Sequence record: SRR20825006_1147
Strand: one strand, 5' to 3'
DNA length: 39,373 nucleotides
The stretch's first letter is position 1. Every line of letters starts with the position of its first letter. Of this stretch, positions 1,119 through 7,013 are shown piece by piece. The notes beneath the pieces are model-generated. The model did not search any database. It was not told the DNA's origin and was given only the letters and a program-made list of their open reading frames with translations. The position numbers and the translations under genes were made by a program.

Positions 1119-1145
1119 GTCACAAGTAAATTATAGATACTTTTA
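1116..1145 (+). promoter_or_regulatory. Bacteroidota sigma-A-like promoter for candidate sRNA-1
   Basis: TTTG (1116-1119), 18-bp spacer, TACTTTTA (1138-1145; consensus TAnnTTTG). Predicts a start near 1150, the first base of a hairpin. Confidence 0.55.
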
Positions 1146-1149
1146 TCTC

Positions 1150-1269
1150 GTATTAATAATTAAAGATTAATACCGTTTATAATCTAATTATTAGGGGAAT
1201 TAAATTTTAAACGCATTAATGATTTAGGGGTGAAAGGCACTCTGCGCGAGCAGGGTGTTTTTCTTTTTT
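1150..1269 (+). ncRNA. Candidate ~120-nt structured small RNA (sRNA-1)
   Basis: Promoter-like element upstream. Hairpin GTATTAAT/ATTAATAC (1150-1173), 14-of-16-bp hairpin 1174-1213 with loop AUUAGGGG, second UUAGGGG at 1224-1230, then a GCGA-capped terminator with U-tract. Confidence 0.6.
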
Positions 1270-1346: not shown

Positions 1347-1354
1347 TAGTTTTA
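1347..1354 (+). promoter_or_regulatory. -7 element-like motif for candidate sRNA-2
   Basis: TAGTTTTA resembles TAnnTTTG; no -33 element at canonical spacing. Confidence 0.4.
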
Positions 1355-1850: not shown

Positions 1851-3695
1851 TTACTTTAAAACTTTAAACTGAATTTCTGAATCTCCAAAAACAGTGTGTG
1901 TCTGCTTTTGAAAATCTTCCGCTTCTGCTTTATAGATATTAGGTACAAAAGTTTGTGGATTGCGATCGATTAGCGGAAACCACGTACTCTGAATTTGAAT
2001 TTGCATTTTATGTCCTTTTAAGAAGGTATGGTTTACCCCTTGTAAGGTCAGATCTACTTCGGTTTTTTGATTAGCTTCAAAAGCTTTAGGTTCACTAAAA
2101 CTCTCACGGAAACGCCCACGCATTACTTCACTACGTACCATCATCTGGTAATTATCCATTTTTAAGTAGTCTTGAGTTTCTGGGTAATCTTCTGCTCCTG
2201 CAGGATATACATCTACCAGTTTTACTACCCAATCTGCATCGGTACCTGTGGTAGCCACCTGAAGTTTAGCCAGTATTTCACCAGTGATCGTCATATCATC
2301 CTCTAAAACTTCGGTTTCATAAACCAAAACGTCTGGTCTGCGCGCTGCAAATCGCTGATCGTCGGTCATATATTTTCTAGGTGTGAATACCATTTTAATA
2401 TCTTCAGAATACGGAACCGGCTTAGAAGGATCACTTACAAAAGCATTTTCAAAATCTGCCGAAGCGCTCTCGGTAAGTTTTTGATCTGCTCCTAAATAAA
2501 AACTTTTAGTTTCTGCTGCTTTTGGAGGCCATTGCGCATAGCTATCCCACTCACGCGAACCGCTGTCATACATAGAAGCTTCAGGGAAATCAATCGCTCC
2601 TTTACCGTCATTTTTCAAGAAATGGTTGAAAAATACCGTCTCGTAATTTTGCTGAAAATCTCTTGAAAGATTATCTCCAAAATATACATTTCCTATAGCT
2701 TGGCGCTCACTTGAGCGTGCCCAATCGCCATGACTCCAAGGCCCGTATACCAAGATATTATAGTTATCACTGGTCTCCTCAATCTTTCTGTAGGTATTGA
2801 AAGGTCCATAAAGATCTTCGGCGTCAAACAGTCCGCCTACAACCATTACGGCAGGCTTGATATCATTTAAATGCTGAATGATTCCGCGACTTCTCCAGAA
2901 TTCATCATAATTAGGATGGTCTTTAATTTGCTGCCAGAATACATTGTCTTCTTTGTAATACGCATCTAAATTGGTCAACGGACCTGCATCTAAGAAAAAC
3001 TGATATTGATCTTGCGTAGGAAGATCAGGAAACGCAAACCAAGGCTTGGTTACCGGTTCATCTTTCATATAGCCGAAAAGCGAAATCGCTCTCCAGTAGC
3101 TTTCTAGAAACGCTCCGTTATGATGGAAATCATCAAAGAAAAAATCAGAAATACACGCTTGTGGAGAAACTGCTTTTAATGCAGGATGCTCACTAAGCAA
3201 AGAATACGTCGCATAAAAACCGGGATATGAAATTCCCCAAGTTCCCACATTTCCGTTGTTATTGTCTACATTCTTTACAAGCCAATCAATCGTATCGTAG
3301 GTATCGCTAGCTTCATCAACTTGTTTTCCTTTTTTATTCGGAATATACGCGCGCATATTGTCGTAAACGCCTTCACTATTCCAACGGCCACGTACATCTT
3401 GCTGTACAAAGATGTTACCTTCTTCAACCATAAATTTATTAGGCCCTATTCTGCCTTTATAGTTTTCTTCACCATACGGCGCACAGCTGTAGGGCGTACG
3501 CATCATCAAAATAGGATACTCTTGTGACTTATCTTTTGGCGAATAAATAGTTGTATGCAATAGCACGCCATCGCGCATTTTTATTTTGACTTCTTTCTTG
3601 TCGTAATGCTCGCGCACATATTCTTCGGTTTGTGCTTGTATGCAGCTCACGAAAAGCAAAAGCACCGCAAATACTAGATTTTTGACTTTTTTCAT
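1851..3695 (-). CDS. CocE/NonD family serine hydrolase (alpha-amino acid ester hydrolase / glutaryl-7-ACA acylase-like)
   Basis: Signal peptide; MRDGVLLHT, RTPY, QDVRGRWNSEG, GTWGISYPG nucleophile elbow, GPWSHG; PepX_C-like C-terminus. Confidence 0.92.
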   Translation of the reverse strand: MKKVKNLVFAVLLLFVSCIQAQTEEYVREHYDKKEVKIKMRDGVLLHTTIYSPKDKSQEYPILMMRTPYSCAPYGEENYKGRIGPNKFMVEEGNIFVQQDVRGRWNSEGVYDNMRAYIPNKKGKQVDEASDTYDTIDWLVKNVDNNNGNVGTWGISYPGFYATYSLLSEHPALKAVSPQACISDFFFDDFHHNGAFLESYWRAISLFGYMKDEPVTKPWFAFPDLPTQDQYQFFLDAGPLTNLDAYYKEDNVFWQQIKDHPNYDEFWRSRGIIQHLNDIKPAVMVVGGLFDAEDLYGPFNTYRKIEETSDNYNILVYGPWSHGDWARSSERQAIGNVYFGDNLSRDFQQNYETVFFNHFLKNDGKGAIDFPEASMYDSGSREWDSYAQWPPKAAETKSFYLGADQKLTESASADFENAFVSDPSKPVPYSEDIKMVFTPRKYMTDDQRFAARRPDVLVYETEVLEDDMTITGEILAKLQVATTGTDADWVVKLVDVYPAGAEDYPETQDYLKMDNYQMMVRSEVMRGRFRESFSEPKAFEANQKTEVDLTLQGVNHTFLKGHKMQIQIQSTWFPLIDRNPQTFVPNIYKAEAEDFQKQTHTVFGDSEIQFKVLK

Positions 3696-3709: not shown

Positions 3710-5710
3710 TTAATCATTGAATTTAGAGATTCCATCTTCGAGCCAGGCTTCAAATCCATCTACATCTGGCGTGTAGCCCACAGGCGTGTTAAGTTCGTCT
3801 TCATTATGGTTCAACAACACATAATACGGCTGCGCATTGATCTGATATTTTTCAATCTGAAAATCGCTCCATTTATTTCCCACGGTTTGAATGCGTTTGC
3901 CGGTAACTTTACTTACATATTGTTCAGCTTCGGGCAGTTCTTCCTTTAGATCTACAAATAACGAAATAAGGACCACGTCGTTTTGTAGTTTTCCAAGGAT
4001 TTGCGGTTCGCCCCAAACGCGCTCTTCCATCTTGCGGCAATTAACACAGGCTTTGCCGGTAAAATCTATTAGTACCGGTTTATTTTCTGCTTTGGCATAG
4101 GCCATTCCTGCATCATAATCAGTAAAAGTCACCAATTGATACGGCCCAAGTTCGGCTTCTTCCGGTAGTTCTCCTTCGGTTAAACCTGCAACACTTCCTT
4201 TAGAATATCCCACACCATAAGGCGATTCACTATAATTTAATGGCGGTGGAAATCCGCTGATCAATTTTAAGGGTGCACCCCACAAGCCGGGAATTAAGTA
4301 CAACGTAAACGAAAGCACAAAAAGCCCTAAAATCAACCTTCCTGAAGAAATATGCGTCAACGGACTGTCGTGCGATAATCTGATTTTCCCGAAAAGATAA
4401 AACGCCATAGCACCAAAAATAGCGATCCAAATCGCTAAGAATACTTCGCGCTCTAAAATATGCGCCTGCAAAACCAAATCAGCATTGGATAGAAATTTAA
4501 ACGCTAGTGCTAACTCTAAAAAGCCCAAAACCACTTTTACTGAATTGAGCCAGCCTCCCGATTTGGGTAAAGAATTCATCAACCCGGGGAATAAAGCAAA
4601 CAAAGCAAATGGGATCGCGATAGCTAATGAAAACCCTAGCATTCCTAAAATGGGCGCCAGACCACCCTCTGAAGCGGCTTGTACTAATAAAGTTCCAACG
4701 ATGGGTCCGGTACAACTGAAACTTACAATGGCTAAAGCCAGAGCCATAAAAAAGATACCTATAATTCCGCCGCGATCTGCTTTTCGGTCTACGGCGTTAG
4801 CCCAAGAATTGGGTAGCATAATTTCAAAAGCACCAAAAAACGAAATTGCAAAAACTACGAGAAGTAAAAAGAATACCAAGTTGAACCAAACGTTGGTTGA
4901 TAATGCGTTTAAGGCATCTGCGCCAAAAATCCCGGTAACCAATGATCCAAGCAATACGTAGATTACCACGATGAAAATTCCGTATAAAATGGCATTTCTA
5001 CGACCGACTGCCAGATTCTTACTCTGCTTAGTAAAAAAGCTTACCGTCATAGGAATCATTGGAAATACACAAGGTGTGAGCAGTGCCAAAAATCCGCTTG
5101 CAAACGCAACGAAAAAGATCGTCCATAGATCTTGTTTTTCTTCTTTTTTAACAACCTCTTTTACCGGTTCGATCTTTTCTACTTCCTCCTGAACGCTACC
5201 ATACGCCTGAAAATCATTGAAGTCTTTAAAAACCTTTCCGTTCTCTTTGACGAGGTCAAAAACAATGTATTTTTCTTCGTTGATACACACTTCTTTACAA
5301 ACCTGATATTTCAAGATCAGCTTGACATATTCAGTGGTTTCTTCAACTTTTATCTTTTGGGATAGCTGCGCGGTTTCTGAGAAAAATGTTTCATCTACCT
5401 CAAAGATCTCACTGTAAGCTGTTGTGGTCTCACTTTCTACCGTAGGTCCTTCTAAAGAATAAGCTTTACCGGCTTCGAGGAACTCTAATTCTAAAGGTAA
5501 AGATCCGCCGGGATCTGTAAACTGCGAATACACATGCCATTCGGGCTCAATGGTCGCATTTAACAACAATGTATATTCAGATTCACTTGTTTTATCTACT
5601 TGAGCCATCCATTGCGCCGGATTTTGTGCTCCGGCTGAAGGTCCAAAAGCTTGTGCATTTCCTGTGAGCGAGATTAATAGCGTTACAAGAAGAAAGCAAT
5701 ATTTAATCAT
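3710..5710 (-). CDS. dsbD: Thiol:disulfide interchange protein DsbD
   Basis: N-terminal domain with WHVYS and VCKEVC; TM domain with LLTPCVFPMIP and FSCTGP; LPKSGGW; C-terminal thioredoxin DFTGKACVNC. Confidence 0.93.
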   Translation of the reverse strand: MIKYCFLLVTLLISLTGNAQAFGPSAGAQNPAQWMAQVDKTSESEYTLLLNATIEPEWHVYSQFTDPGGSLPLELEFLEAGKAYSLEGPTVESETTTAYSEIFEVDETFFSETAQLSQKIKVEETTEYVKLILKYQVCKEVCINEEKYIVFDLVKENGKVFKDFNDFQAYGSVQEEVEKIEPVKEVVKKEEKQDLWTIFFVAFASGFLALLTPCVFPMIPMTVSFFTKQSKNLAVGRRNAILYGIFIVVIYVLLGSLVTGIFGADALNALSTNVWFNLVFFLLLVVFAISFFGAFEIMLPNSWANAVDRKADRGGIIGIFFMALALAIVSFSCTGPIVGTLLVQAASEGGLAPILGMLGFSLAIAIPFALFALFPGLMNSLPKSGGWLNSVKVVLGFLELALAFKFLSNADLVLQAHILEREVFLAIWIAIFGAMAFYLFGKIRLSHDSPLTHISSGRLILGLFVLSFTLYLIPGLWGAPLKLISGFPPPLNYSESPYGVGYSKGSVAGLTEGELPEEAELGPYQLVTFTDYDAGMAYAKAENKPVLIDFTGKACVNCRKMEERVWGEPQILGKLQNDVVLISLFVDLKEELPEAEQYVSKVTGKRIQTVGNKWSDFQIEKYQINAQPYYVLLNHNEDELNTPVGYTPDVDGFEAWLEDGISKFND

Positions 5711-7013
5711 AGTATGCGGTAATTTTTAAAAATTGAGAAGTATTAGGGGTTACCTTATAGCGATCGTCAGTTCGTGCTCCAACGACCCAGATGATGTCTT
5801 GGTCGTTACACAGAAGCCAAACTGACTCTTTATCAAGAGTTGAATATTTTAAGTCTTTAAAGAATTTACTAAGCTTCTTTTTCCCTTTTAAGCCAAATGG
5901 ATAAAACCAATCGCCTTCCTCCCATTTTCTTAATTTAAGCGGAAAATCTAATTGATCTTTATCAAAAATAGCTTCGGTTGTCGTTGTTTTTGAAAATTGC
6001 TCTACAGCTTCTTTTTTGATTTTCAGATTATCTAGAACAAGATTTGCGTCTTGTTCATTCCATAAAACAACTTCGTGTGTTTTTTTGTGTTCTGTAAGTA
6101 GTAACACCTCACGATCTTTTATAAGACGGTGATTTTTTGCGGAAACATATTTACCGGGTTCAGCATCTAGCAAATCATAAATATCATCCCAAGCCGTAAA
6201 TTCAAAATCCTTAAGTAATTGATACAAGACCGCCTTGGTATTTGGCGTCTGCTTCAGCTTCTGAATATTTAATTCGTAGCCTTTAAATGACTGATTTACG
6301 ATCTGAGAAAACAGCATTGCCGTGTAATCTTCAAGTAGCAGTGCAACTTCTTTTAAATGCTGTTGACTCTTCTGAAACTGATTTAAAAATTGGGGGGCTG
6401 CTTCTTCTATCGCAGGAATAGCGTGATGTCTTAAATGATTGCGCAAATATTTATCTGAAGCATTGCTGCTATCTTCTCGCCACTTGATCTCATTGGCCTC
6501 TGCATACGCTAGAATCTCTTCTCTGCTGAAAGGTAACAAGGGACGAATTAATTGCTCATTATGCGCAGTAATGCCAGTGAGACCATCTATTCCTGAACCT
6601 CGACTTAGGTTGATGAGAAAAGTCTCAAGATCATCTTTTGCGTGGTGTGCAGTGGCGATATACGCTAACCCGTTTTTTTGACAAAGCTCCTCAAACCAAT
6701 GATACCGCAATTCGCGCGCTGCCATTTGAATAGAAACCTTTTGATCTTTAGCATAGGCTTCGGTATTGAAACTTTGAAGATGCAACTTAACTTGTAATGC
6801 TTCCGCTAGTTTTTCAACAAAAACCGCATCTGCATCGCTCTCGCTTCCGCGCAGCTTAAAATTGCAATGCGCCATCTCAAAATCAACATCACAAGCTTTT
6901 AATAAATAGGCCAAAACCACACTGTCTAATCCTCCGCTTATCGCTAACAAAACTGAAGTTTGTTTCAATCCATTAAACTGAGATTCTATATGCTGATTAA
7001 ACCTTTTGATCAT
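5703..7013 (-). CDS. tilS: tRNA(Ile)-lysidine synthetase
   Basis: PP-loop AISGGLDS, ARELRY, TAHH..D..ETF, IRPLL, EDSSN, RNHLRH; C-terminal KKLSKFFKD. Overlaps dsbD by 8 bp. Confidence 0.96.
   Translation of the reverse strand: MIKRFNQHIESQFNGLKQTSVLLAISGGLDSVVLAYLLKACDVDFEMAHCNFKLRGSESDADAVFVEKLAEALQVKLHLQSFNTEAYAKDQKVSIQMAARELRYHWFEELCQKNGLAYIATAHHAKDDLETFLINLSRGSGIDGLTGITAHNEQLIRPLLPFSREEILAYAEANEIKWREDSSNASDKYLRNHLRHHAIPAIEEAAPQFLNQFQKSQQHLKEVALLLEDYTAMLFSQIVNQSFKGYELNIQKLKQTPNTKAVLYQLLKDFEFTAWDDIYDLLDAEPGKYVSAKNHRLIKDREVLLLTEHKKTHEVVLWNEQDANLVLDNLKIKKEAVEQFSKTTTTEAIFDKDQLDFPLKLRKWEEGDWFYPFGLKGKKKLSKFFKDLKYSTLDKESVWLLCNDQDIIWVVGARTDDRYKVTPNTSQFLKITAYYD

Follow-up and report, generated by a model that had tools for sequence, protein, structure and literature searches.

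Tandem candidate small RNAs with an invariant G-rich seed beside an amylase gene in a flavobacterial genus, and their predicted targets in fatty-acid synthesis

The stretch of marine flavobacterial DNA analysed here, 39,373 nt of sequence record SRR20825006_1147 (hereafter the window, to whose full length all positions refer), carries near its beginning two candidate genes for small RNAs (sRNAs). Both are located on the plus strand, in an interval of 860 nt that separates the minus-strand genes for a GH13 alpha-amylase (3-992) and an S15 peptidase (1851-3695). sRNA-1, of approximately 119 nt, occupies 1150-1269, with a start predicted near 1150; sRNA-2, of approximately 58 nt, occupies approximately 1358-1416, with a putative start near 1357-1360. 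As no plus-strand gene follows, the units are not leaders. The motif TTAGGGG, which the original prediction had described as clustered in this region, indeed occurs on the plus strand at 1191-1197, 1224-1230 and 1371-1377. Across the window it is not enriched (5 matches against 3.6 expected, with 29 of 100 shuffles reaching 5); what is non-random about it is the occurrence of three copies within 187 nt and, above all, their conservation. The second and third copies are not independent of each other because both belong to a direct repeat of 57 nt (1214-1270 and 1361-1417, 91% identical), and since each repeat copy ends in its own terminator, the locus comprises two paralogous units. These terminators, at 1232-1263 and 1379-1410, are among six terminator-like sites returned by a terminator scan in which 0.5 were expected, and a C-G pair in the stem of the first is replaced by U-A in the second, with pairing maintained.

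Folding of the RNA from 1150 to 1268 yields −32.0 kcal/mol (z score −4.9), a value equalled by none of 200 shuffles, and agrees with the back-to-back hairpins, loop motif and linker motif proposed originally. Hairpin 1 (1150-1173) has 8 pairs and hairpin 2 (1174-1213) has 14 pairs, the latter closing an 8-nt loop, AUUAGGGG at 1190-1197, that displays UAGGGG. The linker at 1214-1231 is unpaired in the fold and holds the seed UUUAGGGGU (1223-1231), which is followed by the intrinsic terminator at 1232-1263 and a U-run. sRNA-2, with a fold of −20.7 kcal/mol (z score −4.3), is composed of a small 5′ hairpin, the seed UUUAGGGGU (1370-1378), the terminator at 1379-1410 and a U-run. In the ensemble both seeds of sRNA-1 are about 60% unpaired, and the mean probability of being unpaired is 0.59-0.71 for the seeds. 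The conserved form of the motif, UUUAGGGGUGAAAGGC, is longer than the one first reported.

The GGGG tracts could instead form an inter- or intramolecular G-quadruplex, sRNA-1 having two GGGG tracts in addition to a GG and a GGG, and sRNA-2 having one GGGG tract. However, four tracts would be required for an intramolecular quadruplex, and the remaining G runs are sequestered in the stable terminator, while the invariant UUUA and UGA flanks of the motif and the complementary mRNA sites described below would be left unexplained. We regard this structure as extremely improbable.

Each unit would be transcribed from a promoter of its own. A TAnnTTTA box lies 4-5 nt ahead of each predicted 5′ end in orthologues, and we read it as a −7 box on the assumption that the Bacteroidota consensus is TAnnTTTG. 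The putative −7 box of sRNA-1 in the window is TACTTTTA (1138-1145, plus strand), with TAnnTTTA conserved before the first hairpin. For sRNA-2 the putative box is TAGTTTTA (1347-1354, plus strand), where TAnnTTTAC is conserved before GTCATTGAC in orthologues, and a perfect TAATTTTG is also present at 1339-1346. Upstream of the sRNA-1 box, an A-run, a GGGG..CCCC hairpin and a T-run make up an element at 1094-1119 that is terminator-like on both strands (1100-1113 in the scan). This element keeps a constant distance to the −7 box of sRNA-1 in orthologous loci whatever the upstream gene, and its TTTTG tail is likely to be the −33 box of sRNA-1.

The nearest genome, G001 (99% complete), shares 53% of the window's sampled 31-mers and has an sRNA-1 identical to that of the window. 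With up to 2 mismatches, the 18-mer TTTAGGGGTGAAAGGCAC was found in 20 of the 23 genomes examined from a single flavobacterial genus and in none of 18 genomes of other genera. One of the 20, G008, was not counted because its sole match reads as coding sequence and is followed by no terminator; the genuine element is present in 19 of the 23 genomes, as two copies in 15, three in one and a single copy in three. Where there are two copies, they lie 137-205 nt apart.

Sixteen rows enter the sRNA-1 alignment, which leaves out G001 (identical), G023 and G004 (near-duplicates), G018 (no second hairpin) and G008 (not an sRNA). The loop UAGGGG and the 25-nt block UUAAURAUUUAGGGGUGAAAGGCA are invariant in all 16 rows while the stems vary, and T.TAGGGGT.AAAGGC is invariant in all 27 of the 3′ modules. 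On the structure given above, 88.5% of alignment cells are paired, compared with 42-52% when partners are slid, and 12 pairs have changed on both sides, compared with 4-8 in the slid controls. The covariation score of 0.243 exceeds that of shuffles (0.147 ± 0.011, with none of 500 reaching it) and of slid controls (0.065-0.11), and RNAalifold independently recovers the loop hairpin and the terminator. The motif-bearing loop that had been proposed from a single sequence has thus held up in every aligned orthologue, and the hairpin stems covary in homologues.

The same evidence bears on whether the locus is a regulatory RNA at all, or a set of tandem DNA-level elements (bidirectional terminators, promoters and operators) serving the amylase and downstream genes. 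The hairpins resemble terminators, the genes on either side of the locus are in every case convergent or divergent, there are palindromes that look like operators, and contigs from RNA libraries give no strand or ends and cover only 1237-1626. On the other hand, the two hairpins other than the terminator are A/U-rich, and 9 of their 23 pairs have changed on both sides, which argues for selection on RNA structure. Invariance extends to the 25-nt block preceding the terminator but not to the terminator stem, and the −7 box is conserved at a fixed distance. We consider it unlikely that DNA-level elements are all there is at the locus.

Under a covariance model built on the 3′ module, the copies in the window and in G001 score 87 and 83-84 bits (83.6 for sRNA-2), compared with at most 36 bits in one genome from each of 150 other genera. 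Matches of this model in other genera (38 of 151 genomes at E ≤ 0.01) were rejected, as the 16 best that were read proved to be gene-end terminators or faint likenesses of at most 36 bits. Unlinked matches to the 18-mer with 2 mismatches, such as TTTAGGGGTGTAAGGCAT in 10 genomes, were likewise set aside; they are mostly apparent protein-coding DNA, one set being conserved across several genomes. Three unlinked 2-mismatch matches (L157, L159 and L160) follow or contain hairpins. In Rfam 15, the region 900-1900 scored at most 25 bits, against gathering scores of 34-175, and the whole window returned no match at gathering level. We found no description of the sRNA pair in the literature within reach of our search, which excluded subscription journals and bioRxiv supplements.

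Predicted targets were read in G001, where the gene starts were scored over −60 to +21 against the loop motif and the linker motif. The scan extended over 2.04 Mb (51%) of the genome and 1666 crude gene starts, defined as the first ATG of non-overlapping open reading frames (ORFs) of at least 80 codons. The gene for an acyl-acyl carrier protein (ACP) desaturase ranks first for the linker motif (−18.6 kcal/mol) and 37th for the loop motif; accD ranks fifth for the linker motif (−16.9 kcal/mol) and 37th for the loop motif. For accA the order is reversed, with rank 36 for the linker motif and rank 1 for the loop motif (−14.0 kcal/mol). The accA gene had not been preselected and happened to be on a scanned contig, and its site CCCCUAA directly adjoins the AUG. 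CCCCTAA occurs in 11 of the 1666 start windows, where 105 permutations of the same composition gave a median of 4 and a maximum of 11. The exact complement of the seed, the 9-mer CACCCCTAA, has 17 matches in G001 outside the sRNA genes, three of which lie on the sense strand just 5′ of genes, namely those for the acyl-ACP desaturase, the AccD-type carboxyltransferase and a small phosphatase-family lipoprotein.

Comparison across genomes strengthens the picture for accA. CCCCTA is found 0-2 nt before the ATG in 14 of the 19 genomes bearing the sRNA pair, 12 of them with CCCCTAA, and the other five have CCCCTT, CCCCTTTT, CCCCCATTT, CCCAAA and CCCTAC. At that place CCCC is present in none of the four genomes of the genus without the pair. 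In 29 other genera the accA promoter (TATATTTG) and most of the leader are recognisably alike, and CCCCTA occurs in none of them, with any CCCC within the last 25 nt in only two. For accD, the cut-off was set at −15.6 kcal/mol, the first percentile of a background of 634 starts. Duplexes at or below this value are predicted in 6 of 18 pair-bearing genomes, using two versions of the site, GCACCCCUAAAA and UUUUUCACCCUUAA(AA), the latter with one G.U pair; three genomes without the pair give −6.5 to −9.4 kcal/mol. The genomes with a desaturase site belong to two lineages whose leaders are otherwise unalignable, and three pair-less genomes have no such site. The earlier suggestion of pairing with CCCC-containing mRNAs thereby gains conserved, genus-specific CCCCUA(A) sites in the accA, accD and desaturase leaders as its predicted partners.

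These observations point to two tandem paralogous genes for trans-acting sRNAs, each with a putative promoter of Bacteroidota type and an intrinsic terminator. sRNA-1 would present its G-rich seed twice, as UUAGGGGAA in the hairpin loop and as AUUUAGGGGUG in the unpaired linker, and sRNA-2 once. In vivo, the partners of the seeds would be C-rich sites, rare stretches within the leaders of fatty-acid synthesis mRNAs that are A/U-rich elsewhere. As CCCCUAA of accA abuts or overlaps the AUG, binding there should block initiation. The sites of accD and the desaturase gene lie 25-40 nt upstream, near the predicted 5′ end, and the effect on these genes could be of either sign. The sRNAs may in this way co-ordinate the two unlinked genes for the carboxyltransferase subunits of acetyl-CoA carboxylase together with fatty-acid desaturation. 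We judge the odds to be somewhat in favour of this reading as a whole, that is, a chaperone-independent pair of base-pairing sRNAs whose G-rich seeds repress accA at its start codon and act on accD and the desaturase gene, possibly connecting lipid synthesis with the supply of carbohydrate.

Searches for Hfq, ProQ, CsrA and RRM_1 gave no match in G001, while each matched between 1 and 5 of 14 control genomes, and the RRM_1 control search did recover the protein in Bacteroides thetaiotaomicron. Any sRNA chaperone in G001 would therefore be of an unfamiliar kind, and the four G-C pairs of the seed may nucleate pairing without one. Flavobacteriia do not rely on Shine-Dalgarno (SD)-led initiation, and to our knowledge almost nothing has been established about sRNA regulation in this class. 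The idea raised originally that the mechanism could be new has proved unnecessary, as ordinary seed pairing at or near a start codon fits the data. The candidates combine free-standing, terminator-ended units, a covarying structure, an invariant accessible seed and predicted conserved target sites, and the pair is probably a genus-restricted, new regulator of a known kind, the trans-acting base-pairing sRNA. If this is true, it would be the first sRNA regulon in Bacteroidota to target acetyl-CoA carboxylase, which catalyses the committed step of fatty-acid synthesis, and a second solution to the problem of co-ordinating unlinked accA and accD. It would also illustrate how, in a genome rich in A/U, rare CCCC sites lend specificity to a G-rich seed. 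The reach of the system is limited by the confinement of the family to approximately one genus.

Several points weigh against this reading. All targets were read in G001, a relative, and not in the window's own genome, and the gene starts were crude ORF calls over only 51% of G001. The complement CACCCCTAA is not enriched genome-wide in G001 (20 matches compared with 32 for the control), and accD and the desaturase gene were picked by their complementarity to the 9-mer and then ranked on that same complementarity. The starts of fabH, accB and accC in G001 have no site, and the desaturase site (duplex at or below the fifth percentile) is found in only 6 of 18 genomes. In a gene tree of accA (27 rows, quick IQ-TREE run, support by the Shimodaira-Hasegawa-like approximate likelihood ratio test only), the four pair-less genomes form one derived clade nested in a larger one (with G014, G022 and G018) whose accA site had already decayed. 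The disappearance of the pair and the decay of the site thus amount to about one evolutionary event and carry no statistical weight, and since the whole accA leader is well conserved in the genus, part of the conservation of the site reflects relatedness. The leader of the gene for HU has a similar site, which is kept also in genomes without the pair. Finally, metatranscriptome contigs from four marine or seawater runs cover only 1237-1626 at a depth of 2-5, give no strand or ends, and may be DNA.

The HU leader (G001:C5:482306-482405, L473; orthologues L474-L494) is almost invariant in 22 genomes. Its complementarity to the sRNA seed resides in two C-rich elements, CACCCUUGAAA and AACCCCCUAAAA, which occur in pair-less genomes as well. 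The RNA-library contigs span 1237-1498, 1237-1387, 1446-1593, 1365-1626 and 1383-1626; none extends over 1150-1236, and they overlap a minus-strand ORF. This ORF, of 72 codons at 1489-1707, has no Pfam match and looks hydrophobic, and the contigs of two studies end inside it, at 1626.

Base pairing with mRNAs is not the only role that a repeated, displayed motif could have. The original prediction had also proposed a protein sponge or decoy, in which the repeated UAGGGG titrates an RNA-binding protein. The motif is invariant and displayed twice in sRNA-1, in the loop and in the linker, and a third paralogue elsewhere in the genome, sRNA-3, carries a related UUUGGGGUG. However, the supply of binding sites is small, with two motifs in sRNA-1 and one in sRNA-2, and no match to CsrA, Hfq, ProQ or RRM_1 was detected in G001. 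The sponges CsrB and RsmZ also display a repeated motif in hairpin loops, but they have many GGA motifs and need CsrA. Because the conserved complementary mRNA sites explain the invariance of the motif without any protein, a sponge is not required, and we think it rather unlikely.

Alternatively, GGGGUGA could act as a mimic of an SD sequence and bind the ribosome through the 3′ tail of 16S ribosomal RNA (rRNA), with which it could presumably form 7 pairs, one of them G.U. That Bacteroidota mRNAs mostly have no SD sequences also speaks for such a binder. However, the copy in the loop has no UGA part, and UAGGGG is what all copies have in common. A 13-mer that we took to represent the 16S 3′ end had no match in G001, where that end is probably unassembled. 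This form of ribosome binding has, in our estimation, only a very slight chance of being correct.

A further ribosomal connection concerns 23S rRNA. The invariant UAGGGGUGAAAGGC (window 1225-1238 and 1372-1385; L151 1140-1153) is identical at 14 of 14 positions to the 23S rRNA of G001. The RNA might copy helix 35a (H35a), an almost universal Z-turn hairpin of the form uGAAA(G)g docking on domain IV (PMC6125677), and so bind whatever protein factor or RNA receptor recognises that helix, such as uL2 or a GTPase of the YsxC type, both uL2 and YsxC being contacts of H35a (PMC12560758). By rough estimate, the odds of a chance 14-mer match to approximately 4.5 kb of rRNA are 1e-3 to 1e-4. A motif scan of species genomes matched many short contigs of distant phyla, and the five that were read are 23S context. 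As a means of mapping the distribution of the sRNAs the same scan was discarded, since its matches were mostly 23S rRNA genes and no distribution was obtained.

Several features speak against such mimicry. In the sRNA, GAAAGGC forms the base of the long terminator stem, with a probability of being unpaired of 0.00-0.01 and no mini-hairpin, and where the rRNA stem has its second C, the sRNA has an A. sRNA-3 has GGGGUGAAAGCC and one copy in G022 has GUAAAAGG. Furthermore, H35a is universal and the sRNA family hardly extends beyond one genus, the match was noticed post hoc, and the seed part of it is already accounted for by the mRNA sites. Mimicry of H35a thus appears very unlikely. We give hardly any credence to a combined scheme in which the sRNA both pairs with accA and accD and copies H35a, binding or sensing a 50S assembly partner of that helix, be it the domain IV receptor or a factor resembling uL2 or YsxC. 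Under such a scheme, assembly of the ribosome and the committed step of lipid synthesis would be coupled in a bacterium that has no Hfq, ProQ, CsrA or RRM chaperone.

As base-pairing regulators, the sRNAs described here presumably resemble RsaE of Staphylococcus and RoxS of Bacillus in using a short, homopolymer-like motif, repeated in loops and linkers, as multiple seeds for a metabolic regulon. The seeds of RsaE and RoxS are C-rich (UCCC or CCCC) and target G-rich SD sites. The polarity is reversed in the present pair, in which a G-rich seed is set against C-rich sites in leaders without SD sequences.

Within the phylum, the closest parallel is provided by GibS and the FopS family of Bacteroides thetaiotaomicron, which are likewise intergenic, terminator-ended, paralogous sRNAs (PMC11697453). 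Their unpaired seeds pair beside start codons and block translation, and they are tied to glycan use, GibS repressing a GH13 enzyme (PMC11697453). The pair studied here has no sequence relation to GibS and FopS, which share an R1 seed or 41-nt motif, and no Bacteroides sRNA family reaches its threshold (BTnc005 at 18.3 bits against 174.8). The seed of the present pair is G-rich, and its predicted core targets are genes of fatty-acid synthesis and not SusC-like genes. The RRM_1 search in G001 found no protein of the RbpB type, which binds FopS and GibS, and the present family, unlike GibS and FopS, is confined to one flavobacterial genus. With respect to the proposed targets, the carboxyltransferase of Escherichia coli is reported to autoregulate accA and accD translation by binding the mRNAs itself (PMC2831308). 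In both cases two unlinked carboxyltransferase genes would be co-ordinated post-transcriptionally, the predicted agent here being the sRNA pair.

The surroundings of the locus hint at the signal to which the pair may respond. Of the 13 loci compared, namely those of the window and 12 relatives, 12 have a downstream gene that runs towards the sRNAs. The upstream neighbour is a GH13 amylase gene in six of the 13, a C-terminal fragment of a protein sorted by the type IX secretion system in another six, and a LacI-family regulator gene in one; in the two loci that show more of the secreted protein, it carries an amylase domain. The palindrome TAAATCGATTAA at 1067-1078, about 80 nt upstream of sRNA-1, is a candidate operator for a LacI-type carbohydrate regulator. 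A second palindrome, TAAAACGATTTA at 1298-1309, lies upstream of sRNA-2 and is kept before copy 2 in many loci. Palindromes near TAAATCGATTTA precede both units and many orthologous units.

In G001, TAAATCGATTTA-like palindromes number 39 (with up to 1 mismatch), compared with 22 for a control, and 7 of the first 15 sites are intergenic. Among six annotated intergenic palindromes of G001, three adjoin genes for SusC-like receptors and one lies between a LacI regulator gene and a GH32 gene (loci L175, L176, L186 and L187). The position of the palindromes beside SusC-like and LacI/GH32 genes suggests that a carbohydrate regulator may control the sRNA pair through them. Taken with the steady position beside the GH13 amylase gene, this would place the sRNAs under the control of alpha-glucan or carbohydrate supply.

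Other candidate targets are less well conserved. In the window itself, CCCCUAA at 5743-5749 on the minus strand lies at leader position −39 of a DsbD-like gene (3710-5710, minus strand), two genes from the sRNAs, and marks a possible minor target; this site is only partly conserved across the genus. Two further sites were rejected, that of a GlgB-like CBM48-GH13 gene in G001, which is missing in the 10 orthologues recovered, and that of a cyclomaltodextrinase gene, which is retained only in G001 and G020.

The third paralogue, sRNA-3, is unlinked to the pair and absent from the window (G001 C10:135740-135801, minus strand, L329/L505; orthologues L496-L499 and L504). It has a canonical TATATTTG box, is approximately 110 nt long and ends in AUGAUUUGGGGUGAAAGCC followed by a terminator. 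It is found in 22 of the 23 genus members, and its neighbours are TatD and asparaginase genes, not an amylase gene. A 15-mer of sRNA-3 occurs in 3 of 401 genomes of the family, comprising both genomes from the genus and one from another genus (G306), with compensating changes in the terminator. With the accA, accD and desaturase leaders of the pair-less clade, its altered seed shows no pairing beyond that of shuffled seeds, and the strongest site predicted for it, with 14 pairs, covers the start codon of a gene for a CAP-domain protein. Further copies with ACGAUUUGGGGUGAAAGCG are present at G010:C546:737-1007 (two in tandem), G019:C1:276158 and G009:C68:16982, and the sRNA family has more members than the three studied here.

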